Source: an uncultured Alphaproteobacteria bacterium (GTDB lineage Bacteria > Pseudomonadota > Alphaproteobacteria > Rhizobiales > Beijerinckiaceae). From it: a stretch of DNA of 64,000 bases. The stretch spans positions 2,459,557-2,523,556 of the forward strand of contig OY970391.1 in NCBI GenBank assembly GCA_963720425.1, in the 5' to 3' direction. Shown here piece after piece: positions 1 through 56,591 of this stretch (positions are counted from its first letter, which is position 1; each line of letters starts with the position of its first letter). The notes below the pieces were generated by a model, which saw nothing but the letters and a program-made list of their open reading frames with translations, was not told the origin of the DNA and ran no database searches. The position numbers were made by a program, and so were the translations under genes.

Positions 1-384
1 ACGACGATCGACCGCGGCGCGATGCGCGATACCGTGATCGGCGAGGGCACGAAGATCGACAATCTGGTGCAGATCGCCCACAACGTGCGGATTGGCCGGC
101 ACTGCCTCATCGTGGCGCAGGCCGGCATTTCAGGCTCCACGGAACTCGGTGATTTCGTGGGCGTCGGCGGGCAGGCCGGTTTTGCCGGTCATCTTCATGT
201 CGGCGCGGGCGCGCAGATTGCCGCGCAGGCGGGGGTCATCAAGGATGTGCCCGGTCAGGCGCGTCTCGGCGGAACGCCGGCGCGCTCCTTCCGGACCTGG
301 CTGCGCGGTCAGGCAGCGCTCGACAAACTCGCCAAGGCCGAGCCACGGGCGCGCAAGGGCCACGTCAGGAAAAAGGTTCGCTGA
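1..384 (+). CDS. lpxD: UDP-3-O-acylglucosamine N-acyltransferase LpxD, C-terminal part (5' end outside window)
   Basis: Frame open from base 1; hexapeptide-repeat beta-helix sequence ([38 protein letters not shown]); its usual neighbours fabZ-lpxA-lpxB resume at 56.6 kb. Confidence 0.85.
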
Positions 385-395
385 TGGACGAACAG
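379..395. repeat. attL core: CGCTGATGGACGAA(C)AG, direct repeat of 56575-56591
   Basis: 14 nt identical (379-392 = 56575-56588), 16/17 overall; contains lpxD TGA and an ATGGACGAA copy of the fabZ start. Confidence 0.7.
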
Positions 396-499
396 TTATG
401 AACGTCAGACACGACCAGACACATCAGGACACTTGTCCAGTGCAAAAGCAAAAATTGCACTCGTAAGAGACCACATTGTCCGCTATCGTCTAGGACACA

Positions 500-543
500 G
501 GGTAACACGTTAAGACAGGCCGTTTTGGTTACCCCTGTTACCC
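500..543. promoter_or_regulatory. three GTTACCC heptamers (500-506 inverted, 528-534, 537-543): candidate arm-type recombinase sites
   Basis: Same heptamer occurs twice at the other island end (56466-56472, 56478-56484). Confidence 0.3.
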
Positions 544-573
544 CCGCTGTTATTTCCTGATTTGGCGGACGAC

Positions 574-1827
574 ATGGCAAGGGCACTCACGGTCAAGGCG
601 ATCGAAACGATGAAGCCGGGCGAGACTCGGCGCGAGATCCCGGATGGTTACGTCGCCGGGCTGTTCTTTATACTGCAGCCGAGCGGCAGAGCGAGTTGGG
701 CAGTGCGCTACCGCGTCGCTCGACACACGCGCAAGCTCACACTTGGCACCTATCCCGGCATCGATTTAAAGTCGGCGCGCGAACTCGCCCGCACCGCTTT
801 GGTAAAAGTCGCCGGAGGTGAGGACCCTGCTGCGGATAAGAAAGTCGCGAGGGCAGCGGCACGATTACCAGCTGATCGGGGTCTTGTCGAGAAGGTCGTC
901 GCCGTCTTCATCGAGCGCCACGCCAAGGCCAATACGCGGGAGCGGTCATGGCGCGAGACTCAACGGATCCTTGAGAAGGAAGTAGTCGGCGCATGGAAAG
1001 GACGGCATCTTTCTGACATCAAGCGCGCCGACATCCATGAATTGCTCGACGGCATTGTCGATCGCGGCGCTCCAATCATGGCGAACCGTGTCCTCGCGGC
1101 GTTGCGGGGACTGTGCGCCTGGGCAGTGGGGCGCGACATCATCTCGGCTTCGCCATGCGAGGGCGTGAAGCCGCCATCGGTCCAGCGCAGTCGCGATCGT
1201 GTCTTGAGCAATGACGAGCTTCGGTCTGTCTGGAAGGCTTGCGACGCGATTGCGTGGCCGTTCGGTCCGCTTATTCAGCTTTTGGCTCTCACTGGTCAGC
1301 GGCGCGATGAAGTCGCGGGCATGCGCTGGAGTGAGGTAAACCTTGAAGCAAAGACATGGACGTTGCCAAAGGAGCGCTGCAAAAACAATGTTGAGCATTA
1401 CGTCCCGCTTTCGGATGCCGTCGTTGCGATTCTTACGTCGCTCCCACGGATCAAAGGGAGAGGCGATTGTGAGTTCGTTTTCACGAGCCGAGGAGACACG
1501 CCGGTTGCGGGCTTCGCTAGGGCCAAACGGCTTGTCGACGCGCGCATGCCTAGCGAACTTGGAGAAGAACCCAACAAATGGGTTTTCCATGACCTCCGGC
1601 GAACTTTCGCGAGCGGGTGCGCCAGCCTCGGCATCAACTTGCCCGTCATCGAGAAGATTTTGAATCACACCGGGGGCAGCTTTCGCGGAGTCGTCGGCAT
1701 ATATCAGCGGCACAGCTTCGCGGACGAGAAGCGCGCTGCGCTCGAGGCCTGGGCGCGCCATGTCCAAGCGGTCGTCAGCGGCGAGTCGGTCGGCAATGTT
1801 GTCGAGTTGGCGACGGCGCGAGCGTGA
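574..1827 (+). CDS. int: tyrosine integrase, P4-type with DUF4102-like N-terminus
   Basis: N-terminus LTVKAIETMKPGE..GLFFILQPSGRASWAVRYR; catalytic region HDLRRTF..LNHTGG..GIYQRH; ATG 574 preferred to TTG 562; lies next to attL. Confidence 0.9.
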   Translation: MARALTVKAIETMKPGETRREIPDGYVAGLFFILQPSGRASWAVRYRVARHTRKLTLGTYPGIDLKSARELARTALVKVAGGEDPAADKKVARAAARLPADRGLVEKVVAVFIERHAKANTRERSWRETQRILEKEVVGAWKGRHLSDIKRADIHELLDGIVDRGAPIMANRVLAALRGLCAWAVGRDIISASPCEGVKPPSVQRSRDRVLSNDELRSVWKACDAIAWPFGPLIQLLALTGQRRDEVAGMRWSEVNLEAKTWTLPKERCKNNVEHYVPLSDAVVAILTSLPRIKGRGDCEFVFTSRGDTPVAGFARAKRLVDARMPSELGEEPNKWVFHDLRRTFASGCASLGINLPVIEKILNHTGGSFRGVVGIYQRHSFADEKRAALEAWARHVQAVVSGESVGNVVELATARA

Positions 1828-1829
1828 AC

Positions 1830-2302
1830 TCGCTTTAGCCTCTTTCTCGGTCTTCGCCTCTTGTTCACTGCAGGCATCGCCGCTGGCCTTGCGGGCGCGG
1901 TCGGCGAGGTTCTTGTCGATGCCTTGCTTGGCAAGGGTAGCGGGCGCATTAGCTGGGTTTTTTCGCAACCCAGCTTTCTGCTTGCGGCCACCAGTATCGC
2001 CGCCCTTCACCAGTTGGTCGGCCTTGCGCTTTTCCTCTTCTCATCGAGCTTGATCTCGGCACGTTTTGTAGGCAAGCGGCCGCTCTTCCTTGCGCGCTGC
2101 GGCAGTCACCTTGTCCAGCTCGGCTTTTGGCAATGCCGCGATGCGTTGGGCTTCGATAGCGGTGGGTTTCGCGCGCGACAATTTTGCCGCCGTTGAGGTA
2201 TTCGGCCTGCACGGTGATGGCCGCCGCTTGGCGGTCTTTCTCTCGCCTCTCGAGCAGGTGCAAAGTGGTGCAGATTTCCACCTTTATGCCTTGACTGGCC
2301 AA
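1830..2302 (-). pseudogene. decayed gene of unknown function between int and the AlpA-like gene
   Basis: Three minus-strand frames read consecutively as one plausible protein (MASQGIKVEI..AEYLNGGKIVAR / AKPTAIEAQRIAALPKAELDKV / KGGDTGGRKQKAG..TLAKQGIDKNLADRARKA); needs 2-3 frameshifts. Confidence 0.3.
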
Positions 2303-2374
2303 ACTCTCGAATCAATAAGAACATAACGGGAACCTGCCTGACGTTTCCAGGCATGGAAAACAGGAGTTTAAGTC

Positions 2375-2587
2375 ATGAGTTACAGCGACGTCTCCAGCCG
2401 CAAGTTCGTCACCCACAGCGAAGCGGCTCGTATTCGCGGTGTCATCGGCCGCACAATCGACAGGTGGGCGCGCCAAGGGATTATCCCGCCGCCCGTGAAG
2501 ATCAACGATCGGAAATATCACGATATCGAAGGGCTCCTGGGTGCCCAAGATCCAGCGCACCCCAAAGAGTCCGAAGAAGCGGCGTGA
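2375..2587 (+). CDS. AlpA/excisionase-like small HTH protein
   Basis: 70 aa, AGGAG RBS; HTH-like THSEAARIRGVIGRTIDRWARQGIIPPP; position typical of AlpA/Xis genes beside P4-type integrases. Confidence 0.6.
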   Translation: MSYSDVSSRKFVTHSEAARIRGVIGRTIDRWARQGIIPPPVKINDRKYHDIEGLLGAQDPAHPKESEEAA

Positions 2588-2654
2588 GCCCAAGCGGGGC
2601 CGGGCCACCGATTGTCATTGACCCCCACCGACAATAGCCTTTCGGAGATTTCTC

Positions 2655-3209
2655 ATGACCTTCACGACCATTAGTCGGGGAGCCGCTTATCGGCCATTTG
2701 CCGATCGGCAAGAAGTTCTGCTCTTCGCTAAAGCCGTAAAGACGAGCGCCGTCCCTCGCCGTGACGAATGCGGCGACTACCGCTTGCTGGGCAAGGTCGG
2801 CCAAGTGTATGCGACCGGCATCGGTGGGAAACGCGAGTTCCAACTCATCGTGGGTACCGCCTTCGGCTGTGAAATCAGCGCACGTCAATGGGGGTTGATC
2901 AAGGAAGAGCTTCATTTCTGTAGGCTCACCAAGGACGGGCACTCGGAGGGCTCTCTGATCCTCGATCGCCTTCCAGCGACAGATGAGGCCGCCACGATCC
3001 GCAAATGTCTGGGCCTCCGCAAACTCCGGGAGCTAAGCGAGGAGGAGCGGCAGAGGCTCCGCGCGCTATCAGAAAAATGGGGATTTCGCCCCAAATTTCC
3101 GGCCGGAGCGACAATGCCGGTATCCCGGCATCTGCGGTTCTCGCCGGAGGAAAAATCGGCGCAAAGTCGCCTCTTAAGGATGCCCGTCTCGATGGCAGTG
3201 TCCAAATGA
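2655..3209 (+). CDS. hypothetical protein (island core)
   Basis: 184-aa ORF with GGAGA RBS; stop overlaps the next start (ATGA at 3206). Confidence 0.5.
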   Translation: MTFTTISRGAAYRPFADRQEVLLFAKAVKTSAVPRRDECGDYRLLGKVGQVYATGIGGKREFQLIVGTAFGCEISARQWGLIKEELHFCRLTKDGHSEGSLILDRLPATDEAATIRKCLGLRKLRELSEEERQRLRALSEKWGFRPKFPAGATMPVSRHLRFSPEEKSAQSRLLRMPVSMAVSK

Positions 3210-3763
3210 CGCGCGCGCATGATGATACCGGCCGCTCCACCGGGCGGCGGCGGAGTAATCGGCGAACGAGAATCGGTGGCCAGTTCGCTCCGCGATTGAT
3301 CGAAATGCTCGAAAGCTCCGCATACAGGGCTTTGAGCCTATCGGCTCACCGCGTGCTGGCGCGTTTGGAGATAGAACTAGGGCACCATGGCGGCGCTGAT
3401 AATGGCGCGTTACCAGTTACGCATGACGACTTCGAGCGTTACGGCATCCATCGTCACGCAATTGGCCCGGCGCTGCGCGAGGTAGCGGCGCTAGGATTCA
3501 TCGAAGTTACGCGGCCGGGTCGCGCAGGAAATGCGGAATTTCGCTACCCGAACCTCTTCAGGATCACCTATTTGCCAACTGACAATGCCGGCCCGACCGA
3601 TGAATGGAGACGGATCCAGACCATGCAACAGGCTGAAGAGTTAGCCACTGCTGCGAGACAGTCGCCCCCCTCGTCATGGCGGCCAAGGAGAAGTCCAGGG
3701 GCGGAAAACGCCATGTTTCACCCCGGAAACCGGCACCAAAACCTCAGTTTGCCCAGGGGCTGA
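3206..3763 (+). CDS. winged-helix / replication-like island protein (function unknown)
   Basis: ATG 3206 coupled to the upstream stop; MLESSAYRALSLSAHRVLARLEIE..YGIHRHAIGPALREVAALGFIEV is a type I recognise from alphaproteobacterial islands; the 3' tail may be frameshifted. Confidence 0.5.
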   Translation: MTRAHDDTGRSTGRRRSNRRTRIGGQFAPRLIEMLESSAYRALSLSAHRVLARLEIELGHHGGADNGALPVTHDDFERYGIHRHAIGPALREVAALGFIEVTRPGRAGNAEFRYPNLFRITYLPTDNAGPTDEWRRIQTMQQAEELATAARQSPPSSWRPRRSPGAENAMFHPGNRHQNLSLPRG

Positions 3764-3897
3764 AACCGCCACTACTGTTCATAGTGCGCAAACCACCACT
3801 ACTTCTATATCTCGGGATGGGGACGCCGGAGACAGGAGCATTTTCATAGCTTGTGCCTTTAGCCCGGCCGCCAGTCTTTCGTCCTGCTTTGTCCATT

Positions 3898-3958: not shown

Positions 3959-4576
3959 TTAGCCGTCCTTATGGACAAGCAATCTCCCATGCATACACAG
4001 CGCCCTTGACATGTACAGGATGGATAAGCCCCTCGAAGGTGGCACCGGAGCAGAAAGAGATACATATTTGCGCGCGAGGCATTCAAATGCCGACATCGTC
4101 GGAGCAAGTGGCCAGCCGGGATATTCGTAGCCAAAAATAAGGATCGCATACCGGCCCGGAAACCCTGATCTCGATAACTTTTCGCAGTCAGTCAGTGCGC
4201 TGCGGTGTTGCGGATAAGGTGAAAGAATATGCGTCAGAATGTTATCGTTAGCCTTCCCATTATCTCCCATCAATCGCATCATTTTCGCTTCGACATACCA
4301 TGTGCCATCTGCACAATTGAGCACAAGGTCGCATCGCTGCCGGCTAACGTTCGGATATGGAACGTTCGTTTTTGCCGAGCCATAAACTGAGGGTTTCCAC
4401 TGGCGAAGCTCAGTTAGTACTAGATTGATCGTGTTGGACTCGGTGTGCGGACCTAGGCCCGCTTTATAGGACGCGCCGCCCGCCCGCTGGCTGATCGCAA
4501 CAGGTCTCTTAGCGTCGGCGGCATGAATACCCCATGCAAAGTCCGTAGCGAGTGCCTCAATAAAGCTGTCAGACAT
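3959..4576 (-). CDS. PD-(D/E)XK-type nuclease-like protein
   Basis: MSDSF start at 4576; D..E-A-K signature (RCDLVLNCADGTWYVEAKMMR); visibly lower GC than surroundings. Confidence 0.5.
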   Translation of the reverse strand: MSDSFIEALATDFAWGIHAADAKRPVAISQRAGGASYKAGLGPHTESNTINLVLTELRQWKPSVYGSAKTNVPYPNVSRQRCDLVLNCADGTWYVEAKMMRLMGDNGKANDNILTHILSPYPQHRSALTDCEKLSRSGFPGRYAILIFGYEYPGWPLAPTMSAFECLARKYVSLSAPVPPSRGLSILYMSRALCMHGRLLVHKDG

Positions 4577-4750
4577 CTCAACACTGCCGCCGCGTAGAAT
4601 TTTTCCCACTAGCAATCTAGCCGAGAGGGGAAGGCGGACCAACTGCCAGTCGCGCGCGTCGTGAAGCCGAAAATGCTATCGTAGCTAAGGTGCCGGGCCG
4701 GGTGGCCGCCCGTCGCACCTCACGCCGCCATCGCCTACAAGCGGACTGCT

Positions 4751-5227
4751 ATGCCCTTGTCCGTGCAACTTGCCACCGACCTCGCTCGCGGCGTGGCTTA
4801 TTTGTTCAGCGATTGGCCCAATCCCGCCGTCCCTTCTTTCGGTGTCGGGGTCTATACGATCTGGCATAATGATGGCCGCTTCATTTACGTCGGCATGTCC
4901 GGGCGCGGGGTAACTGCCGACACGGTTCATCGGAACACGCCCCAAGGCATCTACACGCGCCTGCAAAGCCACGCCAGTGGGCGGCGTAGCGGCGATCAGT
5001 TTTGCGTTTATGTGGCTGACCGTCTTGTCTTGCCGACCTTGTCGCAAGATGACATCACGGCCATTGCATCAGGCCGCCACCAAATGGATGCTTTCGTACG
5101 TCGATATATCCACGACAACCTTTCCTACCGCTTTGTAATACTGCCTGACGGGGCAACGGCATTGAAGGTTGAAGCGGCGATGAAGCGTGGCGAATGGGAG
5201 CATGGCCGTCCGCTCCTAAACCCTTGA
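4751..5227 (+). CDS. GIY-YIG domain protein
   Basis: GVYTIWHNDGRFIYVGMS (GIY..YIG spacing) followed by IYTRLQSHASGRRSG. Confidence 0.6.
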   Translation: MPLSVQLATDLARGVAYLFSDWPNPAVPSFGVGVYTIWHNDGRFIYVGMSGRGVTADTVHRNTPQGIYTRLQSHASGRRSGDQFCVYVADRLVLPTLSQDDITAIASGRHQMDAFVRRYIHDNLSYRFVILPDGATALKVEAAMKRGEWEHGRPLLNP

Positions 5228-5235
5228 GGGTGACA

Positions 5236-6113
5236 GTGCCGTCCTCCTTTAAACATCTGCGCGATTTCATCCAAAACCAAATGCGGATGTCGCACATCTA
5301 TCAGCCCGTCATGATTCGGGAGCTTCTCGAACACGGGGGCAAGGCCAGCATCCGCAAGATCGCTGCGGCATTTCTGGTGCGCGACGAAAGCCAGCTTGAG
5401 TACTATGAGCAGATCACCAAAAACATGCCGGGTAAGGTGCTCGCAAAGCACGGCGTTGTAGTGCGTGACGGGGATCAGTATCGCCTCACTGTCGATCCGT
5501 CGGCGCTGTCCTCGCGGGAGCGGAATGAGTTAGTTCGGCTGTGTGATACGGCAATAAACACTTATCTGCAAAAGCGTGGCACGGCTGTCTACGATCATCG
5601 TAGGGCGGCGCTCCGTCATGAAGTGTTGAAGCGCGCGGGATTTCGCTGCGAACTATGCGGCGTCTCGGCAGATGAACGAGCTATTGAGGTTGACCATATC
5701 GTGCCGCGAAAGCACGGGGGCGAGGATGACCTAACCAACCTTCAAGCTCTGTGTTTCAAATGCAATGCGAACAAGGGTGCGCGTGACGATGCTGATTTCA
5801 GAGTAATCCGCGAAGGAATCAATGCCCGCCAGCCCGATTGCATCTTCTGCAATATTCCAGACAAGCGCATCATTGCCTCTAACCCCCTCGCGTTTGCGAT
5901 CCGCGACAAGCATCCAGTAGCTGAACTGCACACGCTTGTAATACCCAAACGGCACGCTGCGCGACGTTCTTCGACCTGTTCGAGCCGGAACGGCGAGCAA
6001 TCAACCAATTATTGGACAAACTCCGTAGCGAGATAATTAGTGAGGACACTTCGGTGAGCGGTTTCAACGTTGGGATTCAACGTCGGCGGCCATGGCCGCT
6101 TTTCGCGGCATAA
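5236..6113 (+). pseudogene. HNH endonuclease fused to a HIT domain, frameshifted and truncated
   Basis: HNH motif CELCG..EVDHIVPRKHGGEDDLTNLQALCFKCNANKG; HIT N-half CIFCNIP..HTLVIPKRH; +2 shift near 5959, continues in frame 3 (TFFDLFEPERRAINQLL..GFNVG); stop at 6113 before any HxHxH triad. Confidence 0.6.
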
Positions 6114-6275
6114 GGGCCTTTGGGTACTGTCCGAACTTGAGAGCGAGTGTCTCTAAATTGCAGGATGAGGTGTCCTAATTCAAACGACTAACAGATAGCG
6201 ACACACAAACGTACGGGCCGAGCTGAAGAACAGCTCGCCCGGCGGAAGCAGCCGAGAATATCGGTCCAGCGTCTA

Positions 6276-6515
6276 TTAATGCATCATCACTTTTGTGACC
6301 TGCTGATGCAGATAGTCAGGGAGATTATCCACTGGGATCATCACATACATGTGGCCGTGCATCTTGACGATGTCGGCGTGCATCTTCGTGCCGTCTTGCA
6401 TCACCAGATCCGTGTGAGTGATCATCTGGACAACTTCGGAGACGTTGACGGCATAGGCACTCGAAGCCATCAAAAGTCCAATCGACACGGCGATAATTTT
6501 TGCCTTGGCTCTCAT
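6276..6515 (-). CDS. small secreted Met/His-rich protein (possible metal, e.g. copper, binding)
   Basis: 79 aa, GGGAG RBS, signal peptide ending SSAYA; the 57-aa mature part has 8 Met and 6 His (KMHADIVKMHGHMYVM..VMMH). Confidence 0.6.
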   Translation of the reverse strand: MRAKAKIIAVSIGLLMASSAYAVNVSEVVQMITHTDLVMQDGTKMHADIVKMHGHMYVMIPVDNLPDYLHQQVTKVMMH

Positions 6516-6650
6516 ATTGGCGCTCCCACTAAGGATTTCCTTCTCGAGCTCAAGCTTTATCAGCCGCCCAAGGAAGAACTCCCTTCTAGGAGCTGTGGTT
6601 CCACCGCCTCAGACGGTTCGCGCTCGGCTTATACGCTCATTATCCTAATT

Positions 6651-7022
6651 TCAGATTGAGTGTCCTAGTTCGGGGCAGTACGGGCCTTTCGCGTTCAGCC
6701 GGAGCCGAGGCGGCGGCGCGAAGCCTAATGCGCCGGTTTCCTCCACAAGCTCACTGAGCCGTCCGTCAACCACCGCCTCCATCTTCTCTTCCAGCGCGAC
6801 GCTCAGGTGCAGCGCCACCCTTATGCGGCTCGGCAGCGACGGGAATGCCGACCTCCATAACTGCGCGAACTGCCGCAACAGGGCCTCAGCCTCGCTCATC
6901 GGGATGAACTCACCCGACAAGCGCCGGAGCTTGATCTCGTTCAACCGAGCGGCGCTCTCTTTGAGATGGGTGCCCGCCCTGGCGGCCGGGCTATCGGATT
7001 TATTGCTCGCGACGTTGCGCAA
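6651..7022 (-). CDS. hypothetical protein; weak resemblance to the C-half of phage Nu1-type small terminase
   Basis: ARLNEIKLRRLSGEFIPMSEAEALL; no ATG start; the frame opens just after a TAG. Confidence 0.25.
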   Translation of the reverse strand: MRNVASNKSDSPAARAGTHLKESAARLNEIKLRRLSGEFIPMSEAEALLRQFAQLWRSAFPSLPSRIRVALHLSVALEEKMEAVVDGRLSELVEETGALGFAPPPRLRLNAKGPYCPELGHSI

Positions 7023-7680
7023 ATGACCAACGTACTTCTTGGCCGACTTCGCCTACGCGGAACTTTGCAAAGGTGCCGGAGTAGCCGAAAACAACGGGGA
7101 CACAGCCGGGCAAACTATCCACCACACCCATGTTCACTTGATCCCTCGCCGTCAGGGTGATCTCCAAGACCCGAGAGGCGGCGTAAGAGGTATAATTCCC
7201 GGCAAGGCCACCCACTGAGCTGTAATTAAGGGGTGTTTCAGCCGACCGCGCAGCCTGCCAGGCAGCACGACGATCGGCGCGCTGCGGTGGTGAGCCGACT
7301 TAGGTCGCTCGTTGCGGGCGAGTCCGTGCCCGCGTGATGTAACGCATTACGACGTGACGCAGCGGGGGAGGGTATGGATGGACGTGCGCGGATTCGGCAT
7401 CGACGCTGCGAAGTTCAACTCCGCGCCGCTCAGTGATCGGCGCGAGATGCTGGTCGCCGCTAAGGGTCAGACTCGCAAATCAGCGAGATGAAAGTCCGCG
7501 TTGCCGAGTCTCGCGGCCGCTTCGCGCGCGGCGATCCACGCGCGCTTGGTCGGGCCGCTTATCTCGCGCTGATCGCCGACCTTGAAGCAGGGAAGGCGAA
7601 GGCCACGTGCCTTCACGCGGCACTAGCACCGATCTGTCGAGAGCTGAAGCGCGCCAACAGCGAGCATGGCGCGCTGGGAT

Positions 7681-8202
7681 ATGAGCGGACATTTGTCGTT
7701 CTCGAATGATATGGGTCTTGACGTCTGGGTGGCAAAAAATGATCGAAATCGAAATTTCAAGGGTCAGGCGTTTTCCGCGATACCGCACATAAAGCAAAAA
7801 TTACCGCTTCAATTTGACGAAGCAACGAATTGAACAATCGAACTGATCGATGTGCTGTGGTTGAAGGGAAACTCAATTCAAGCTGCATTTGAAATTGAGA
7901 GTACAACGTCGATTTTTTCAGGGCTCCTGCGCATGCCTGATCTTATAACGACGCAGCCTAATAACAACATTCCACTTTATATTGTGGCTCCTAGTGAGCG
8001 CAGGAATAAAGTTATCGTAGAGGTCAATCGACCAACGTTTGCCAAACTCTTGCCCCCGATGTCGGAAATGTGCCGCTTTATTTCCTTTGAAGAACTACGC
8101 AAGCAGGTGGAAGCAACAAAGGAGCTATTGCCGTTTTTGAAGCCTGAATTTCTCGATTGTTTTCTGAAAGTTGTGAGATTGAAGATGCTTGACAGGCCAT
8201 AA
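7681..8202 (+). pseudogene. restriction-endonuclease-like gene remnant (N-terminally truncated, in-frame stop at 7831)
   Basis: GLDVWVAKNDRN..FDEATN*TIELIDVLWLKGNSIQAAFEIESTTSIFSGLLRMPDL..PLYIVAPSERRNKV; strongly AT-rich relative to the window. Confidence 0.5.
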
Positions 8203-8692
8203 TGTTCACCGCTTTCGTGCCCTTGACGACCCTTCAAGGCAACGGGGTGAAACATGGTTACCTGGTGCGGATGGGACGGTACTCCAAATCAACCTCTGAG
8301 ACAAAGCGATAGGCACATGGTTCGATATGTGTTCAGGAAGGGCAGCTATCCCTCGGCGATGGGCGCGCGCCTCTGATGTCCATCAGATGCGCAGTCCTTT
8401 AAATCGGATGATAATCAATACTTTATGACGCACTCCGCGCGCTCTCATCGCGCCGGGTAACACCGAGGTAACGTAATGCAGGGAATATCGAACGCCGGTG
8501 CTTCGCAGCCGGGTCGTGCGGGCAGCGCCGCTTTACCTCGTAGCCAGCGCGCGAAGCGAACGAATGATCCATGCGCCGGCCTCGATCGGAACACGGCTCG
8601 CGGGAAGCGGCGGCCATGAGCGAGCGCGACCTCCAGATCAAGCACTGCGAAAGTGAACCGCGTCGAGTGAAGGCACGCCGCGTTCGCCCAGG

Positions 8693-8887
8693 TCACACAT
8701 CGTCACGCAGCACGCCCCAGCCGACTGGGTACATGGACCCGAGATTATACTGAGCCTTAGCGTTGCCTTGGTCGGCCAGCGGACGAAAAAGCCGCAGCGC
8801 GGTCGCATAGTCGCCTTTGGCATACGCGGCCTCGGCATCCTCAAGCTGCCTGGCCGCGACAGGCGCAGCAAAGCTCAACACCAGCAT
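8693..8887 (-). pseudogene. Sel1-repeat protein fragment
   Basis: AYAKGDYATALRLFRPLADQGNAKAQYNLGSMY; only one repeat, abuts a Zn-ribbon-family fragment at 8640-8700. Confidence 0.5.
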
Positions 8888-10065: not shown

Positions 10066-10089
10066 GTCTCCGCGTTCAACCTTCTCTCA

Positions 10090-47579: not shown

Positions 47580-47599
47580 AACGCATTGGCCGTCGCATG

Positions 47600-47815
47600 C
47601 GGCAGATCGAAAATCGGGCATGACGTTCACGGCCCGGCCGCCGCAGCGCGTGCAGACGAAGCGCCGCTGCGCAATCGACGGGAACTGCACATCATCGGCG
47701 AGCCTGAGCGCCGCGAACGTGAAGGGCTTCGAATGCTAGGCAAGCCGCGTTCGTGCATGTGACGAACAGGCCTTCGAGGGCTTCAGTAATCACCTCAGCC
47801 GCCCACGGGCGTCAT
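47600..47815 (-). pseudogene. Zn-ribbon ORF family member with several lesions
   Basis: LEGLFVTCTNAACL / HSKPFTFAALRLADDVQFPSIAQRRFVCTRCGGRAVNVMPDF; an extra nt near 47737. Confidence 0.5.
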
Positions 47816-48076
47816 AAAGCCGACTTTGTTCTCATGTATCGATTCTGTGGCCAAAACATCGGGAGGATGATCACAATGGCAGCAGCGACAACGCCGCGAT
47901 GGAGCACAACAGTTTCGCCGACAAGCTACCACACATAACCCGTACGCCCCCAATATTCGCTTACACTGAAGGCAAACTACTCTGTATGCGGCGGCGTGAC
48001 ATCTTGTTTCCCCCAATTTCGAGGTAGCCTCGCGCCCGCAATCCGCGGCAGAGCGCGTGAACCACGAGGGTTGGCA

Positions 48077-48770
48077 ATGGCGACGCGACGAAGGTTTCTG
48101 CAGGCCGCCGGCGGGTTGGTCGGGGTGCTCTCCACCGAGCAGGTCGCGCGTGCCGAGCGGACGTTTGACGGTCCACCGAGCTTGCCGCAGACGCCCAACA
48201 TCATTGTCCTGTTGACGGACCAAGAGCGCTACCACATGCATTGGCCCGCGGGTTGGGTGGAGGCCAACCTGCCGGCGTTCGTGCGCCTGCAGCGTCACGG
48301 GCTAACGTTCCATCGCGCCTTATACCGCCGCCAGCGAGTGTTCGCCCAGCCGCGCCGTGATGCTGACTAGCCAGTTCGCGCCGGTGAACCGAGTGGCGCG
48401 AACTTTCCTGTGGCCAGGCCTGCCGAGCGCGCGGCAGCGCGTGAATATCGGTTCCCTACTACGGGATCGTGCTGGCTACCACGTGGTGTGGAAGGGCAAG
48501 TGGCACTTGGGCTTCGCACAGAATGCCAAGCCGGGGTCGGGCGGCGAGGAGTGGACGGCCGCCGATATCGCGTACCTGGAGCGCCAATACGGCTTGGCGG
48601 AGTGGAACCCGCCAGATGCCGGGAACGCCATCCAGGAGCGCCAGCCGGGCATGTTCGGCTATTTCAACGGACTGGCCACGCTCGGTGGCGGTACGCCGAA
48701 TAATGACGGACGTTATGTCAGCGGCGTCACGCCGGGCGCCTCTGGGCAGACGCCGAACTGCTGTCGCACA
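48077..48770 (+). pseudogene. sulfatase, N-terminal part, frameshifted and truncated
   Basis: Tat signal MATRRRFLQAAG, NIIVLLTDQ; an extra T near 48320 before AYTAASECSPSRAVMLTSQF. Confidence 0.7.
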
Positions 48771-48851
48771 AGCGTTTGTCGTGGCCGCGAAGATTGGGAA
48801 GATTGGGTTGACAGCGCGCTTCATGTGGATCGCCTTTCGCAGGGGGTAACT

Positions 48852-48992
48852 CTATCCTAATCGTCCCATCCGATGCACCCGCCAATCCGGCGACACGTTC
48901 ACTGCTCTCGCTCCGCATTGTGAGCACACGAAGCGCCGGCACCGCGTGATCGACGGGAAGTGCAATTCGTCGGCAGGCTCAGCCCCGTGAAG
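48852..48992 (-). pseudogene. Zn-ribbon ORF family, C-terminal half
   Basis: DELHFPSITRCRRFVCSQCGARAVNVSPDWRVHRMGRLG*. Confidence 0.5.
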
Positions 48993-49070
48993 GAGAACGG
49001 CGTCGAGTTTGGCGCTACTAGTTGACGGCGCGACCAAAAAGGAAACGGGTGCAAATACAAGGAACCGAGA

Positions 49071-49225
49071 ATGGTAGATACCCTCATCAAAAATGTCTCC
49101 GACACCGCATTCATGGTCGCCAGCTTCCGTGCCGTCGAAAGCGAGCGCGCGGATGCCCTCTTTCATGATCCGTTTGCTAGAAGGCTAGCGGGTGAACATG
49201 GGCGGAAGATCGTCGAGGGCATGTC
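49071..49225 (+). pseudogene. SAM-dependent (LCM/TcmP-type) methyltransferase, N-terminal fragment
   Basis: VSDTAFMVASFRAVESERADALFHDPFARRLAGEHG. Confidence 0.45.
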
Positions 49226-49289
49226 GGGAGGGATTCTAGGTGGCTGGGCGCCTGCGATACGCACAGGCATGGTGGCATGGACGGTGGCG

Positions 49290-49519
49290 ATCCGCACCTG
49301 CATTATCGCCACGTTGTCCCAAGAACCGTTGTCGCCGGAAGCCACGGCGACCGTAATGCCGAGCGCAGCCGCCTCTAACAACCTTAAATGCATCTCATTA
49401 ACGGAATCCTGAGGGAACACGTCTTCGGCCGCCCCCCAACTGATCGAGACCACCGAAGTTTGTGGATTAGAAATTGCCTCCAGGACCGCATATTTTACCT
49501 GGACGTCCTCGTCAGCCAT
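49290..49519 (-). pseudogene. S53 (sedolisin) peptidase internal fragment
   Basis: SISWGAAEDVF..MHLRLLEAAALGITVAVASGDNGS. Confidence 0.45.
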
Positions 49520-49688
49520 GGCTCTTATCTACTTTAGGGGGAGGCAATGTGGCTCACGCTCAACCTATTCATCCTGCCGCCGCTGCGCGCCCACGCGCAA
49601 GCAGCTGGCGCTTAGGAGCTTATTGAAGCGAACGCAGATGCGTCAAACCCACGTAGCCCTGGCATAGAGCCGACAGTGGAGGGGGAGC

Positions 49689-51611
49689 ATGCCGTTACCA
49701 GAAAGCACACCATCCGGTGCCGACGCCGCTGGCATTATGAGCACGCCATCTGCGCCCGACACGACTGCGGCATCGCTCGACCAAGCATTCCACGACCTCG
49801 ACGCCAACGTAAAGCCCGAGGAGATTGTCCGGCGCCTGTGCGAGCTCGAAGCTTCGTGCCAGGGCGGTACGCGCGACCAGGCGAGGCTTTTGCACGCGCG
49901 CGGATTGGCACTCAACCGTCTCGGCTTCGACTCGCTTGACGACCTGCAGACCGCGGCCAGTATATTCCAGGAGCTCGGCGACCGCCCGGCTACGGCTGAG
50001 GTGTGGCGCGCGATCGCCCTCGTTCACAATTGGCGCGCCAATGCTCGCGAGGCTTCGCTGGCGCTGTTGCGGACCATCGCCGAGGCCGGCGAGGACCATC
50101 TCAATCTGGCGCGCGCGGTTTTAGAGACCGGTCGATTGGGCATTGAGGTCGGCCGCGCCGACGAGGCGCATCGTTTTCTCGTGCGCGGGCTCGAGATCGG
50201 CGGCGCCGATCTCGAAGCTCTGGAGATGTGCAAGGCGCGCGTCAATGCGCTGCAAGCGCTGGTTGTTGGGGGCGATGTCAATGCGGCCGAAGCGATGTTG
50301 GCCAGCATCGATCTTGATGGTGCGACGACCCGCCTGCGACATCTCACCATGCTCGAACGCGCGCGCATCGCTTTGTTGAAGGGTAAGATCGACGAGGCGG
50401 AGAAGATCCTTGACGAGAGTTGCGGGCTCCTTTTACCGGACGATCCCGAAAACTTTAGCGACATCGAACAATCGCATGTCGAGGCCGAGACCCTTTTCGC
50501 CAAGAAGAATTATCAGCAGGCGTTGGACCGCATCGGCAAGGTGATCGCTCGCTATTTTGCCGATGATCTCCCCGGCCGCGAAATCGGCGCGCGGATCTTG
50601 GAAAGCAAGATCCTCGATCAATTAGGCCGCCGCGATGACGCCGACCGGACGCTCGCGGCGGCTTTGCAGCAGGCGGTTCAGCGTCAGCTCTCGTCCCACA
50701 GAAGAAATGTTCTCGAACAGCTCGCGGCAAGTGAGCGGACGGCCGGAGCCTGGCTGCCTGGAACGGCGCTGGCTATCACGACCGCCAATTCCAAAGATCT
50801 TTTCTATGGGCGCGAGCCGCTCGGCACAGGGGGTTTCGGGTCGGTGGAGAGCGCTTACGATTGCGAGACCGGCCGCAAGGTCGCGCTCAAGCATTTGCAG
50901 CTCCAAAGTATCTATGATCTTTCGGTACAGGCGGATCGCCTCCACGCCGCCGAAATGGAAGTCGCGGCGGCGTCGCGGGTCAAACACCCCGGCGTCGGGC
51001 AAGTTTTCGGGCTCATACGCGAGCCGGATGGCGAAGCTCTTCTCGTGCGCGAATTCATAGAAGGAGAGGCCCTTCGCGACGCCATGATGCAGGGCAAGTT
51101 GGAATTTTCCGAGAAATTCGGGCTCCTCGCCAACATGGCTTACGCGCTCGCGGCGATTTACGCCGCGTCAGTCGTCCATCGCGATATGAAACCGGAGAAC
51201 GTCGTCCTACGCAATAACAGCGCTCAAGCACCGGTCATCATTGACTTCGGCATCAGCGTGATAGGACGCGTCCGCGAAGCAAAGGATGCGCCCAAAACTC
51301 TAGTTTATGCCGCGCCCGAACAGATGAAGGCGGGATGGTGCGACGCGCGCAGCGACCTTTATTCGCTGGGCTTGATCGGCTACGAACTCTTCGTGGGACG
51401 ATTGCCCGAGCCGCCGGAATCGGGACTGCTGGGAATTGTCGAAGATGCGGGCCGCAGCAAGGCGATTGCGCATGAACTTAGCGGCGCCGGTCTCCGCGAC
51501 CCTCTAGTGGCGCTGTTGACGCGGCTTTTGTCGGTATCGCCGCAACATCGGCCTTCCTCGGCGCAGGACGTCGGAGCGATGATCAACGCGGCGAAGGGTG
51601 AAGGGGGATAA
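49689..51611 (+). CDS. Ser/Thr protein kinase with a long N-terminal helical (TPR-like) region
   Basis: GGAGGGGG RBS; GTGGFGSV, VALKHL, HRDMKPENVV, IIDFGIS, YAAPEQ in the C-terminal 270 aa. Confidence 0.85.
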   Translation: MPLPESTPSGADAAGIMSTPSAPDTTAASLDQAFHDLDANVKPEEIVRRLCELEASCQGGTRDQARLLHARGLALNRLGFDSLDDLQTAASIFQELGDRPATAEVWRAIALVHNWRANAREASLALLRTIAEAGEDHLNLARAVLETGRLGIEVGRADEAHRFLVRGLEIGGADLEALEMCKARVNALQALVVGGDVNAAEAMLASIDLDGATTRLRHLTMLERARIALLKGKIDEAEKILDESCGLLLPDDPENFSDIEQSHVEAETLFAKKNYQQALDRIGKVIARYFADDLPGREIGARILESKILDQLGRRDDADRTLAAALQQAVQRQLSSHRRNVLEQLAASERTAGAWLPGTALAITTANSKDLFYGREPLGTGGFGSVESAYDCETGRKVALKHLQLQSIYDLSVQADRLHAAEMEVAAASRVKHPGVGQVFGLIREPDGEALLVREFIEGEALRDAMMQGKLEFSEKFGLLANMAYALAAIYAASVVHRDMKPENVVLRNNSAQAPVIIDFGISVIGRVREAKDAPKTLVYAAPEQMKAGWCDARSDLYSLGLIGYELFVGRLPEPPESGLLGIVEDAGRSKAIAHELSGAGLRDPLVALLTRLLSVSPQHRPSSAQDVGAMINAAKGEGG

Positions 51612-51688
51612 GAATCGCGTTCGCCTTGAGGACGTCGAAGCCCGAGACTTGCGTCTTTTTCGGCGCTGCCGCCAACACAGGTGCGGCC

Positions 51689-51778
51689 CGGCGCCGCAAG
51701 TTCATCTGCACGCGCTGCGGCGCCCGAACGGTGAGCTTGATGCCGGATTGGCGGATGCATAAGGCTAGCGGAATGGGC
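51689..51778 (+). pseudogene. Zn-ribbon ORF family, C-terminal fragment
   Basis: RRRKFICTRCGARTVSLMPDWRMHKASGMG. Confidence 0.45.
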
Positions 51779-52022
51779 AGTCACACGCGGTCCCCGGTAC
51801 ACTGCCGAGAACTACGACTTTATGCGCCAGTATCGCGGCCAAGATGACGAAGAAGACATGCAGCGCCACCGCACCCTGCTGAAGCAGCATACACGAAAGC
51901 GACGATGACCTAATTTTTGGCTACCTGCCTGGATGCGATTGAAGAAAAAGCAGCTGCCGTTCAAACAATTCGCACTCTAGGCCATCACCTGATATTTTAG
52001 GTGCGATGGTGGTTTCGGCGAT

Positions 52023-54817
52023 TTGGGTTCCAGATTGCGTATTTTCCTGTCCTTCAATTCCAAGGATACGGCGCTGGCCGAGGCCATCCGTTTCGGCCTT
52101 TGCAGGTTTGAGCCCGATGCGAGTATCTATTTCTCTCCAGTGTCTCTTGGCAGCGGCTTTTGGCTGCCGAAACTGGCGACCGAGATCGGCGAGGCCGACG
52201 CGTTCCTGCTGCTGATCGGGCCCAAAGGGATCGGTTCCTGGCAGGAAGTCGAATACTTCGCCGCGCTGGACCGGCATGTGAACGAAAAAGCGTTTGCGCT
52301 TGTGCCGGTTATGGCATCCGGCGCGCAGGCGCCAGGATTGCTGTTCCTGCGCAGCCTTAACTGGGCGAGGCTCCGTCCGTCACTGAGGATACAACGCTGC
52401 ACGAAGTGCTTGCGGCGCTCAAGGGCGGCGCGGCGGAGAACGCGACGCCGCTGTGGAAGCTGGTCAATCCCTATCGCGGCCTCGAAGCGATGACCGAGGC
52501 CAATGCCGATTATTTTTACGGCCGCGGCGGCGAAACCGCCGGCGTGCTGAACGCGCTCGCCGCAAAACCGGATCGGCTGCCGATCCTGATCGGCGCTTCG
52601 GGGGTAGGCAAATCCTCGGTGGCGCAGGCCGGAGTACTGGCGGCGCTGAAGGCCATGCGCTGGCCCAGCATTGACGGGGCGGCATCAAATGCATGGCCGC
52701 CGGGGCTTTCGAACAGCCGCAGCTTTCTCACCCTGATGATGCGCCCCGGCGATGCGCCGCTCGAAGCGCTCGCCGGCGTGTTCATCGGCCTGTGGGGGCT
52801 CGACTCCACGGACCCCGAACAGGCCACTTTGCCGCGCAAATGGGCTAAGGGCCTGTCCGCCGGCGACAACAAGCTCGCCGACCTGATCGGCACGACCCAG
52901 GAGCGACTTAAAAAGCGGCAGGGCGAAGCACCGGAGCGTGTGCTCCTCTACCTCGATCAGGGCGAGGAGCTTTACACCCGCGCTGCACAACAGGAAGCGC
53001 ATCGTTTTTCGGAGGTGTTGAACGAAGGACTGCACGATCCGCGCATGTTCGCCTTTGCCAGCCTGCGCGCCGACTACTACGATCGCTTCCAGGCCGACGA
53101 GCCGCTATTTAACCGCCGCGAGCACGTCGACGTGCCGCCGCTCGATCGCGCCCAGCTTCAGCGGGTCGTCACCGCGCCGGCCGCCGCGCTTGGGGTCTCC
53201 TTCGAGGACGACAAGATCGCCGACCGCATCACGGCCGCCGCGGCGGCTGAACCCGGCGCGCTGCCGCTGCTCTCCTATCTTCTCACCGACATGTGGGCCG
53301 AGATGGTCCAGCGCGACAAGCCGGTCTTGGGATTGTCGGCGCATGCCATTGACATCGGCGGCGTGCTCGCAAGCCGTGCCGAAAATTTCCTCAAGGAAAA
53401 TCCAGAAGAGCAAAAGGCGCTGCGCCGCCTGCTGACGCTGCGGTTTGCGATCGTCCCGCCGGAAGGCGAACCGGTGCGCCGCCAGACATTCCGCGAGGAA
53501 TGCAGTGAGGCGGAATGGGCGCTCGCCGCCCGGTTGGCCGATTATCCGTACCGGCTCGTGGTGATGAGCGAGCGCGAGATTGACGGCCATGTCGTCGCCG
53601 AGGTCGCGCACGAAGCCTTTTTGCGCGCTTGGCCGCAGCTAGCGCAATGGCTACGCGAGGAACGCGATTTTCTGGTGTTCAAGGGCGAAGTCGAGCGCTC
53701 CGAGCGGCGCTGGCACGAGATGACGCAGGCCGATCGTGCCTTACTCACCGGGCTCGATCTCGCCCGCGCCGAAGAATGGCTGCCGAAGCGGTCCGGCGAT
53801 CTGTCTCCTGAAGTTACCGCCTACATACAGCGCAGTATCGCTTGCGACCGCGCCGCAAAGGAGCGGCAACTTCGCTTCCAACGGCGCGTGACCCTGGGTT
53901 CAGTGGCTGCAATGCTCGTTATATTGATTATCGGCGCTTTTGCCTGGATCAAATGGGGTGATGCGGATCAAGCTAGGTCGTTGGTCGTGAGCGAGCGCAA
54001 TCAAATGATCAAGATTGAAGCGAACTTTCTTGCTGGTCTGGCGCGCCAGGCTCACGACAGGGGTGACAACCGAACGGCGATCGCGTTGGCACTCCAAGCA
54101 CTTCCGGACCCAACTTTGATGGGCAGGATACCAAATACGGTTGAAGCCTTATTGCATGCGGCACTAGCCGACTATCGGGCCGCCAAAAGTCGAGGCATCA
54201 CAGTTTTTTTCTCGCCTGACGGTGGTCGCATCGCAACAGTGATGCCCGACTTTAGCATTCAAATTTCGGACGCTGCTACGCGCAAAGTAATCATTGTACT
54301 AAGGGGACCTGAAGATGAAATTACCAGCGGAGCTTTCTCGCCCGACGGCAGCCGCATTGCGGCTGCTTCTTTCGATAAGACCGTGAGGGTCTGGGATGCA
54401 GTGTCCGGTAAGTTACTGATCACGGACATCGGTCATTCGGACTTCGTCAGTGGAGTTGTATTCTCGCCGGATAGTCGTCTCCTTGCGACCTTTTCGGCGG
54501 ACCATACAGCAAGGGTGTGGGATGCAGCTGTGGGAAGGGAAATTACCGTACTATTGAATAATAGTGCGGTAGAAAGTGGCGCATTTTCGCCAGATGGAAG
54601 GCATCTTGCTGTTGCCTTGGATAGCGGCGCAGTTGTGGTGTTTGATATTAGAAGCGGTGAGGGACAATACAGTTTCAATTACGGGGACCGCCTTTTCGAA
54701 GTAGCTTACTCCCTCGACGGCAATCGTATTGCGGCTGCTTCTTCCGTTGGAGATGTGCCAATCTGGGATGTTGCTACGAGGCGTCTAATTTCAGTGCTCC
54801 GTGCAACACGGCAATAG
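52023..54817 (+). CDS. TIR - STAND P-loop NTPase - TM helix - WD40 protein, interrupted by one frame change at about 52365 and ending after 5 WD blades
   Basis: TIR-like IFLSFNSKD..DAFLLLIGPKGIGSWQEVEYF; NPYRGLEAMTEANADYFYGRGGE; Walker A GASGVGKSS; LLYLDQGEE; TM VTLGSVAAMLVILIIGAFAWIKW; FSPDG..VWD repeats. Confidence 0.7.
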
Positions 54818-54880
54818 CTTCCTGCGCAAAGTGGCATGTCTGAAGAGGGTCATTTTCGACCGACCCAGCCGGTTTTGCCT

Positions 54881-55217
54881 GCCGGTCGATGTCTGTTTCG
54901 CCCCGAAAGCGGACTTGCGGCCGGGCCGGAGCAAGACTAGACCGTATTGAGATTGGTCATAGCCCCGCGAGATTGTAGACGCTGAATCTCATACATAGCG
55001 GACTTAAGGGGGCTGCCACTCTCTCGATTACGATCCAGTTCTCGCGAGTCACGTCGGGGCGTGACGGTCTTGACCGCCTGGCCGTCGCCGCTCGCCGCAT
55101 GATTCGGCAGATGCAACGTCGCACGCGGCGCAAGGCCGGAGCGGTTAGCTCAGATCTTAGAACCAATCGCCATTTGTCGAGAGATCAACAATGTCGCCTG
55201 TGGACATTTTTTGCCGC
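54881..55217. repeat. direct repeat copy B (337 bp)
   Basis: See copy A at 47024-47579. Confidence 0.9.
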
Positions 55218-55461
55218 GGCCATAGCACCGGGTGAGAAATGCGAGTTTCCGTCTCGGCTTACTGCTAATCCTAATTGTGAATTTCAAAGAGCAAGCAATT
55301 GTGTTTCCATCTGATCTAGGCTCCTCCGGCGTGGGTTCCTCGGAGGAGTTAGGGCCGCCTGGGAAATGCCCGCCCTCTTAATCAGCGCGCCCAGGCGGCT
55401 CGCCATCACCCCTACCACTGATCCTTGGCTGATCGCCGTTGGCCACTGCGCCGCGCGAGTG

Positions 55462-55680
55462 TCAGTTTTCCGGCGGAAGCCGCTCACCAACCACGGTGCC
55501 GTCCGGTTGCGAGATCTGATATCCCGTGATCACACCGCCGGCTCGAACTCTTTCTTCGGCCAATGCGCGAATCTCCGCAAGAGTTTGGCCTGGCATGGAC
55601 TGCGATTCCTCGATCAACTCGACCGCCCCGGTCGTGGCCGAACGTCCGAGCCATGCAATCCCGAAGACGGTCTCATTCAT
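55462..55680 (-). CDS. hypothetical small protein
   Basis: 72 aa from ATG 55680, which overlaps the stop (ATGA) of a broken upstream minus-strand reading frame. Confidence 0.35.
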   Translation of the reverse strand: MNETVFGIAWLGRSATTGAVELIEESQSMPGQTLAEIRALAEERVRAGGVITGYQISQPDGTVVGERLPPEN

Positions 55681-56465
55681 CGCTGCGGTTCTCCGGCTGG
55701 CCTCACCGTCTTGCCTCCGACCCGGCGCTTTTTGCGATTCAGCTCTCGATCGGCTGCGTTCCGTTCCCGCGCGCCCGATAGTCGGCCCAGCACGCATGAA
55801 CCCTTGCGCGCCGCGACCCGCACCTTGCGCAACGGAACGTCCGGTGCCTGCCGATGTCTAGCATCGTCGGTTTCATCCGGCAGATCGAGCACTTCGAACG
55901 GCAGCCGCCCTTCATGATGGCAATAGAGCGCCGCGCATTCGATGACGACGGCGCTGAGGCCGATCCGCGCGCATGTCGGCGATCGTCGCGCAAGGGCCAG
56001 AATAGGTGGACCGGGGCATGGACAGGATGGTGCCGCCCGAAGGTCACTTCGTCAACTGGACGGTCCTGAGCAGATTTCGTGCCCGTCGCGACGACGCGGA
56101 GCGCGGGTCGTTCGTAGGCGTATTGGCAGGTGTAGGCACATGGCCAGCCTGCGGTTCATTCGGTGACTTCAGTGGCTCGGCTGGCGGCATAGCTGATGGT
56201 GTAGGCGGAGGGTGGCCTGCGATGGCCATAGCCTTCGAGAGGACTCTCGGGAGGACGAAGAAAATTACCGTGTAAAAGGCGCTCAGCGGCCGTAAGTCGA
56301 TCGATTAGTTTTTTGTCCTCGGCCATGTGTCGTCCAGCAGATTAGGAAACGCTATAGCAGGCACCGGGCGAACAGTACCGAGGCCGGTGACGTTTGACGT
56401 GAGGGATCTCGTCGGGTAGCTGTGGCGTCACATCGTAATCAGGGTCGGCGAAACGCCGCCGCACG

Positions 56466-56484
56466 GTTACCCGTGGCGTTACCC
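56466..56484. promoter_or_regulatory. two GTTACCC heptamers near attR
   Basis: 56466-56472 and 56478-56484; same heptamer as at 500-543. Confidence 0.3.
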
Positions 56485-56511
56485 CGCCGCCATATTCGGT
56501 CAGCTAAGTAC

Positions 56512-56541
56512 TTGAGAGAAGATCATTATCAGATTGATAAT
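56512..56541 (+). promoter_or_regulatory. candidate sigma70-type promoter TTGAGA-N18-GATAAT reading out of the island into fabZ
   Basis: AT-rich island end; -35-like hexamer at 56512-56517, -10-like hexamer at 56536-56541; 39 bp upstream of the fabZ ATG. Confidence 0.3.
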
Positions 56542-56574
56542 AATTGATTATTTGCTGTGCATTGACGGTGGTGA

Positions 56575-56591
56575 CGCTGATGGACGAAAAG
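56575..56591. repeat. attR core: CGCTGATGGACGAA(A)AG
   Basis: Direct repeat of 379-395; contains the fabZ ATG (56580). Confidence 0.7.

Follow-up and report, generated by a model that had tools for sequence, protein, structure and literature searches.

The window analysed here is a 64,000-nucleotide (nt) stretch of contig OY970391.1 (positions 2,459,557 to 2,523,556 of the forward strand, assembly GCA_963720425.1) from a member of the Beijerinckiaceae close to Methylovirgula (86-88% identity to named FabZ homologues). It carries a foreign insertion at the overlap of the lpxD stop and the fabZ start, flanked by exact 14-bp repeats. We hold it very probable that the insertion is a 56.2-kb integrase-borne island, that it is a retargeted descendant of a tRNA-Lys-specific element, and that fabZ is now driven from island DNA. 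The insertion is read from uninterrupted junctions in three close relatives, and the proposed ancestry from the sites used by related integrases.

Attachment sites and the uninterrupted junction

An initial annotation of the same DNA had placed one 14-nt string at both ends of the region (16/17 identical when widened to 17 nt), and exact copies were confirmed. The string CGCTGATGGACGAA was found only at 379-392 and 56575-56588 when up to one mismatch was allowed across the 64 kb; 0.02 copies were expected from shuffled sequence, and two or more copies occurred in 0/100 shuffles. The sole mismatch in the widened repeat is C393 vs A56589. On the left, the lpxD TGA (382-384) shares one base with an ATG (384-386), and this copy reads ATG GAC GAA CAG TTA TGA, which encodes MDEQL and a stop (384-401). 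On the right, fabZ starts at the ATG at 56580, as it does in the public record. Internal copies that would indicate tandem accretion were not found, the best in the window having 3 mismatches (chance level). ARAGORN detected no tRNA or tmRNA gene in the window; the flanking genes are lpxD and fabZ, not the tRNA usual for such islands. Separately, the attL junction (376-393) forms a perfect 5-bp hairpin, GTTCG-CTGATGGA-CGAAC, which a scan labelled as a minus-strand terminator. At attB its stem shrinks to 4 bp, and the reconstructed attP lacks it, so GTTCG-N8-CGAAC was rejected as a symmetric core.

Empty sites were sought by a FabZ-based scan of metagenome contigs, from which 80 fabZ loci were surveyed. 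The annotation had taken lpxD (ending at 384) and fabZ (starting at 56580) to be normally adjacent. Hexapep and FabA domains confirmed the two genes, and the adjacency was borne out by the survey, in which 63 of the 80 fabZ loci had lpxD upstream. For most of the remaining 17 the upstream sequence was too short, and 5 of the 17 carried a GMP-reductase-like gene on the opposite strand upstream of fabZ, which looks like a different synteny and not an island. None of the surveyed loci had an insert between lpxD and fabZ, and an integrase beside fabZ was found in 0/80, nor in two further look-ups (L181 and L182).

The nearest relatives by FabZ amino acid (aa) identity were L086 (94%), L181 (95%) and L182 (96%). 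Their DNA is 86-90% identical to both window flanks, and lpxD and fabZ are contiguous in all three (gene order bamA-lpxD-fabZ-lpxA-C93-lpxB in L181). The alignment of relatives' junctions, suggested with the annotation, gave the same uninterrupted, core-containing site each time: ...AAGGTTCGCTGATGGACGAAAAGGTGGC..., that is, left flank, one core and right flank, with single flanking-base differences in L181 (AAGCTT) and L182 (GAAAAAGTGGC). In BLAST against the window each relative gave two blocks which overlapped at the core by 17 bp (L086, L181) or 14 bp (L182). Relatives with the same 56 kb in place, or empty sites lacking the core, would have spoken against integration; none of the surveyed loci had the former, and the core was present in all three empty sites. 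As the junction is the left flank plus the core plus the right flank, recombination between attP and attB added 56,196 bp and duplicated the 14-bp identity segment; the direct repeats at attL and attR, single-copy at the uninterrupted site of relatives, are those of integrative elements in general. The attP junction reconstructed from the window is GGTGGTGACGCTGATGGACGAACAGTTATG, and the attB junction is AAGGTTCGCTGATGGACGAAAAGGTGGC. The site-specific integration that the annotation had proposed, with the island supplying a copy of the fabZ start at attR, is thus matched by exact empty sites in L086, L181 and L182.

The integrase, its relatives and the anticodon-arm register

The short stub at the left end is followed by an integrase, as the annotation had it. 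This matched Arm-DNA-bind_3 (PF13356, 3.9e-17), the SAM-like middle domain Phage_int_M (PF22022, 3.1e-07) and Phage_integrase (PF00589, 1.2e-20), and the PHROG family phrog_1 (integrase, 8e-69). The catalytic set R243, K270, H339, R342, H365 and Y377 was invariant or nearly so in a 26-sequence alignment. NCBIfam NF007246 was matched at 100 bits and missed its cut-off of 434, which indicates family-level similarity only. Identity to phage integrases was only 27-35%, and relatives in IMG/VR were at most 35% identical. The motif GTTACCC occurs 9 times in the window vs 2.25 expected, and 5/9 copies lie at the island ends (3 at 500-543 and 2 at 56466-56484, the right pair about 90 bp inside attR). 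These clusters would fit the arm-type sites of a P arm and a P' arm, with both ends belonging to one element.

The integrase search with a record of flanking genes, also suggested with the annotation, showed where the family inserts. As a strict test, a T-arm search was made in the 450 bp upstream of the integrase gene (int) of 84 relatives. At least 63/84 had an opposite-strand tRNA 3' half, from anticodon arm to acceptor end, and the distance from this fragment to the int start was 170-275 bp (mostly about 180-210). By a looser test only 17/83 were without a tRNA-like match, although a few tRNA calls were doubtful. The targets include tRNAs for Lys, Asn, Thr, His, Arg and Ala, while lpxD, fabZ or lpxA lay near none of 80 genomic relatives. 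Anticodon arms of tRNA genes are thus the target of the family, and its int-proximal junction retains the native 3' half that was displaced. The opposite view, that the family does not use tRNAs (ARAGORN called almost none beside the relatives), was dropped, as partial tRNA 3' halves were seen by eye and by the T-arm search.

Between the junction and int, the family has conserved DNA, with CAGAC/AGGACA repeats followed by GGGTAACA...GTTACCC..GTTACCCC. This P-arm block sets the register of the alignment without recourse to the target. In the ungapped register, CGCTGAT-GGACGAA-CAG of the window stands against CGCTGAT-CAAGAGT-CAG in the tRNA-Lys(CUU) site of integrase P0004 (75% aa identity) and against CCTGAT-TAAAAGT-CAG in the tRNA-Lys(UUU) site of P0001 (75%). 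The window core thus stands at the anticodon-arm position, and CGCTGAT matches the stem side of the Lys(CUU) site at 7/7 positions, with the island-side CAG in addition. A layout with half-sites CTGA and (T/A)CAG around a 7-bp overlap is proposed, the overlap corresponding to the anticodon loop in the relatives. At attL the target half-site would be CGCTGA, the overlap probably TGGACGA (385-391), and the island-side half-site ACAG (392-395). This layout would account for the identity block (CGCTGA + TGGACGA + A), for the base that follows it (C from the element at attL, A from the chromosome at attR, like the empty sites), and for the foreign left flank GGTGGTGA at attR.

In a neighbour-joining tree (no support values) the window integrase was nested among tRNA-Lys targeters, and the same group holds three other integrases with non-tRNA sites. 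These are 70-73% identical and lie after yjbQ (P0003; L082 9780-9830), at the start codon of a gene that runs divergently (P0002; L085 100-125), and inside a chemoreceptor (methyl-accepting chemotaxis protein, MCP) gene (P0005; L172 2290-2330). All three sites fall in register with the position of the anticodon arm. The most economical history would be retargeting from a tRNA-Lys site.

Under the mechanism proposed, an element attP (...GGTGGTGA-CGCTGATGGACGAA-CAGTTATG...) would have undergone conservative site-specific recombination with a chromosomal attB (...AAGGTT-CGCTGATGGACGAA-AAGGTGGC...), the latter being the lpxD-stop/fabZ-start overlap. The integrase comes from a family that recombines at anticodon arms, and its own closest full-length relatives use tRNA-Lys. 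The lpxD/fabZ junction would mimic such an arm by a half-site CGCTGA(T), a 7-bp loop equivalent TGGACGA (the presumed overlap) and the CAG half-site of the element, and the island would be a retargeted descendant of a tRNA-Lys-specific element.

The host operon and the content of the island

In the empty sites lpxD and fabZ are translationally coupled through TGATG, with a Shine-Dalgarno (SD)-like motif within lpxD. Both coding sequences are intact after insertion: lpxD keeps its native end, and every fabZ codon is kept. The annotation had described the target as the 5' end of fabZ. Integration there stands, but no fabZ codon is foreign, and the island has taken the place of all that stood ahead of the start codon, namely the ribosome-binding site, the promoter and the coupling to lpxD. 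From these sequences the coupling of fabZ to lpxD reads as lost, and co-transcription of fabZ-lpxA-lpxB with lpxD would be broken too, with codons untouched. The island right end, with an AT-rich promoter-like site and the SD-like GGTGGTGA, would take over fabZ expression. TTGAGA-18-GATAAT occurs there once vs 0.3 expected, and GGTGGTGA ends 5 nt ahead of the fabZ ATG; the region is predicted to act as promoter and ribosome-binding site. The last island open reading frame (ORF; 56156-56326) is on the minus strand, divergent from fabZ, so read-through from the island into fabZ is not expected, and fabZ-lpxA-lpxB most likely depend on an island-borne promoter. A consensus scan found no terminator-like hairpin between the lpxD stop and the int start, so lpxD transcription could possibly run into int.

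The lpxD-fabZ-lpxA cluster is essential in E. coli, where the balance of LpxA, LpxD and FabZ matters for envelope homeostasis. The insertion raises the physiological question of how the cell tolerates fabZ and lpxA uncoupled from lpxD. Between lpxA and lpxB, a C93 (BTLCP, transglutaminase-like) peptidase is encoded on the minus strand (57896-58546), a position kept in L181 (4317-4940) and L182 (3249-3875).

Coordinates of the features are collected below.

Table. Features of the island and its flanks, in window coordinates (HTH, helix-turn-helix).
Feature	Position	Strand	Basis
lpxD 3' end, native through TGA (382-384)	1..384	+	Hexapep domain; 96% aa identity to L086 LpxD; 88-90% nt identity to L086/L181/L182
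attL core CGCTGATGGACGAA	379..392		Exact repeat of 56575-56588; ungapped alignment to anticodon arms at relatives' attL
Stub ORF (MDEQL and stop): three initial fabZ codons fused to island DNA	384..401	+	Sequence reading
P-arm: CAGAC/AGGACA repeats 407-433; GGGTAAC 500-506 (minus); GTTACCC twice, 528-543, ahead of int	393..573	+	Position conserved across relatives whatever the target
Tyrosine integrase, 417 aa, DUF4102/P4-like, apparently intact	574..1827	+	Pfam, PHROG, catalytic residues
Two terminator-like hairpins after int (1951-1975, 2219-2236)	1951..2236	+	Consensus scan only
Backbone module: HTH protein, 184-aa ORF 2655-3209, ORF 3206-3763	2318..3850	+	92% nt identity to L167
70-aa MerR/AlpA-like HTH protein	2375..2587	+	MerR_1 6e-05, Exc 7e-03; phrog_66 'excisionase and transcriptional regulator' 1.3e-05; 91% aa identity to L167 homologue
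Nuclease-rich, partly decayed accessory region	3959..12043		HNH-HIT 5194-6036, weak GIY-YIG-like 4751-5227, restriction-enzyme fragment 7852-8202, SRPBCC, Rieske
Metabolic cargo, first part: STAS proteins, Crp/Fnr regulator, phasins, SPFH, phaB/phaA/phaC, FabI-like, DUF3141	within 12140..46849		
Metabolic cargo, remainder: pta, ackA, proton P-type ATPase, PPK2, polyhydroxybutyrate (PHB) depolymerase, ClC channel, BON, GalT, trehalose synthase	within 12140..46849		
Defence-like module: TPR-Ser/Thr kinase 49689-51611, TIR 51993-52493, nSTAND1-WD40 52406-54817	47024..55217	+	PD-T4-6 / MADS6-like kinase matches
P'-arm: GTTACCC twice, same motif as ahead of int	56466..56484	+	Motif count
Island-derived fabZ upstream region: TTGAGA-18-GATAAT 56512-56541 in AT-rich tract; SD-like GGTGGTGA 56567-56574	56512..56574	+	Consensus scan, sequence
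attR core CGCTGATGGACGAA, then native AAGGTGGC	56575..56588		Sequence; empty-site comparison
fabZ 56580-57074, lpxA 57071-57874, lpxB 58784-59968, now split from lpxD	56580..59968	+	FabA domain 7e-36 for fabZ; same order without island in L181, L182

The 70-aa HTH protein behind the integrase is a candidate excisionase (Xis) or regulator. It belongs to a backbone module shared with L167, a contig from another metagenome. As the backbone is 92% identical to that of L167 vs only 74% nt (81% aa) for int, the backbone circulates and is mosaic. No shared backbone was detected by tblastx in the islands of the close relatives, L167 alone sharing it. The int of L167 (2-1191), the closest relative of the window integrase, is split by a frameshift into ORFs of 336 aa and 60 aa.

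Within the cargo, plasmids of Caballeronia sp. SBC1/SBC2 match the fabI-DUF3141-pta-ackA-H+-ATPase block (~28800-36200) at about 80% nt identity, and a Mesorhizobium plasmid matches the PPK2 gene (36874-37782) at about 81%; the fabI-to-ATPase/PPK2 module seems to circulate among soil bacteria of different classes. The P-type ATPase (ORF 33630-36869) carries a tail of ~250 aa (36030-36870), built from 24-nt tandem repeats and rich in Pro, Glu, Ala and Lys. The tail gives a weak Trypan_PARP match and is an unusual appendage for the proton-pump family. A 22-nt tandem repeat, TGAGTGTCTTGCGAGCGAGATC, is present four times at 20025-20133, at the start of the SPFH/Band-7 gene. A phaC fragment is duplicated at 97% identity (17372-17667 vs 25002-25297), a second segment at 90-97% (15988-16277 vs 28037-28327), and an acetate-kinase ORF is truncated (~26940-27415); such duplicates and truncated genes are signs of rearrangement and decay. 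Direct repeats of ~150 bp, 99% identical (47024-47579, 54881-55217), bracket the kinase-TIR-nSTAND1/WD40 module (49.7-54.8 kb), which suggests that homologous recombination within the island brought in or duplicated this cassette. Small Cys-rich (zinc-ribbon-like) ORFs of one family stand as inverted copies near both cargo ends (10222-10630 vs 47612-47779 and 48871-48978).

Alternative explanations and known systems

Several findings weigh against the proposed history and mechanism. The nearest integrase among 5.8 billion proteins is only 81% identical and a partial sequence, followed by one at 75%, and no second occupied lpxD/fabZ site was found among 80 integrase-relative and 80 fabZ loci. 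The exact attP, attL and attR strings had no match in IMG/VR, and no excised circle or attP junction was found. Conjugation or mobilisation genes (type IV secretion/coupling protein, relaxase), as an ICE (integrative conjugative element) would carry, were not found in Pfam, PHROG or NCBIfam scans or in precomputed gene calls of the island. Virion, packaging and lysis genes (capsid, tail, terminase large subunit, lysis), as a prophage would carry, were not found either, only weak small-terminase-like HTH matches (PHROG). The duplicated fragments and truncated genes suggest long residence. The native right half-site, AAAG, poorly matches the CAG of the element, the neighbour-joining tree carries no support values, the promoter call is a weak consensus match, and folding of the fabZ 5' region was unremarkable, with no notable RNA structure (z = 0.53).

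Many of these points bear on whether the island, integrated as described, has become an immobilised relic that has lost the ability to excise or transfer and now simply forms part of the chromosome. We regard this as a serious possibility, at somewhat less than even chances. It would explain the lack of genes for conjugation, mobilisation and packaging, the decayed duplicates and gene fragments, and the attP junction missing from IMG/VR, and the related L167 element has a frameshifted int. A relic would not be expected to keep a full-length integrase with all catalytic residues, identical 14-bp cores, intact arm-type repeats at both ends and an Xis-like gene, and from these features the island may still be mobile today.

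A further alternative, unlikely though with some weight, is that the resemblance to a tRNA-Lys arm is due to chance and that lpxD/fabZ specificity was gained without a tRNA-Lys intermediate. Only 7 + 3 positions are in common, several relatives were compared (the chance of an in-register 7/7 match is roughly 1e-3 after about ten comparisons, by our estimate), and sister integrases with 70-73% identity have unrelated targets (after yjbQ, a gene start, the MCP gene). Yet the conserved P-arm sets the register independently, the match is with one of the two closest full-length relatives, and the island-side CAG is conserved throughout the subclade. Retargeting from tRNA-Lys is therefore preferred.

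A more far-reaching reading was also considered, and we find it doubtful. Here the integrase subclade would form a natural retargeting series from tRNA arms to look-alikes at gene boundaries (lpxD/fabZ, L085, L172, L082), and in addition fabZ-lpxA-lpxB would be driven solely by the island and int read from lpxD, coupling envelope lipid synthesis to maintenance and expression of the element. If true, this would be an addiction-like or regulatory arrangement, or a switch on excision.

Two remaining explanations concern the insertion itself. That the 56 kb were ancestral between lpxD and fabZ and were lost in the relatives, the 14-nt repeat being a scar or coincidence, is extremely improbable and effectively already refuted: the G+C content of the island (0.55-0.66) brackets that of the flanks (0.60-0.63) and ordinary metabolism makes up much of the cargo, but three relatives show exactly flank, one core and flank, none of the surveyed fabZ loci carries an insert behind lpxD, a single gain is far likelier than exact loss in all lineages, and the integrase abuts the repeat with arm sites at both ends. 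An assembly artefact has a negligible chance of being right: the source is a metagenome-assembled contig (ENA ERZ25039501 contig_7765, 2.33 Mb) that might have been misjoined through a short shared sequence, but two independent 14-bp misjoins would implausibly have to yield a textbook attL and attR, with the int gene and the matching arm repeats each placed at the proper end, and two contigs on record carry the exact FabZ beside the same neighbouring genes.

Among known systems, the island is closest to P4/CP4-57-like (DUF4102, Arm-DNA-bind_3) tRNA islands. It shares with them the domain architecture of the integrase, flanking direct repeats, an int gene adjoining one of the att sites, repeats of the arm type and a small Xis-like HTH gene, and the relatives of its integrase lie at tRNA anticodon arms. 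It differs in that its target is not a tRNA or tmRNA, that the identity block is 14 bp vs a tRNA 3' half, and that the element restores the upstream region of a gene and not the 3' end of an RNA. Secondary-site integration and changes of site affinity are known from lambdoid phages, which acquire a new specificity when the attP overlap or core is replaced by the sequence of a look-alike site; for the island such a change is suggested by comparison of sequences alone.

The annotation had called a target inside an essential, translationally coupled lipid-A/fatty-acid operon unusual, noting that most P4-type integrases use tRNA or tmRNA genes. This holds for an integrase family that targets tRNA anticodon arms, but in kind the target is not unprecedented, given the islands at the 5' ends of dusA and prfC. 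Islands with dusA-specific integrases also occupy the 5' end of a gene, with island DNA taking the upstream side, and putative promoters have been noted after their integration (Farrugia et al., 2015; PMC4482086). They replace the 5' coding end (PMC4482086), whereas the island studied here changes no fabZ codon, and dusA is dispensable and stand-alone, whereas fabZ is internal to the lpxD-fabZ-lpxA cluster. With lpxD/fabZ as target and not the 5' end of dusA that defines dusA-associated islands, they serve as an analogy only. ICEs of the SXT/R391 group likewise occupy the 5' end of prfC and supply its upstream side (PMC2791158). SXT is self-transmissible, whereas no conjugation genes were found in the island studied here, and the integrases and targets of the two are unrelated.

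The literature searched gave nothing relevant linking fabZ or lpxD to an attB or an integrase. The island is a known kind of element and not a new kind of system; what is new is the target in the lpxD-fabZ-lpxA cluster and the visible trail of tRNA-mimic retargeting. A precisely mapped attB in a lipid A/fatty-acid cluster extends the short list of protein-gene 5'-end targets (dusA, prfC). Integrases that are 70-75% identical use tRNA-Lys(UUU), tRNA-Lys(CUU) and four different non-tRNA sites, all in register through the conserved P-arm, so the rules of core recognition and retargeting are directly testable by half-site and overlap swaps and would be useful for integrase prospecting.

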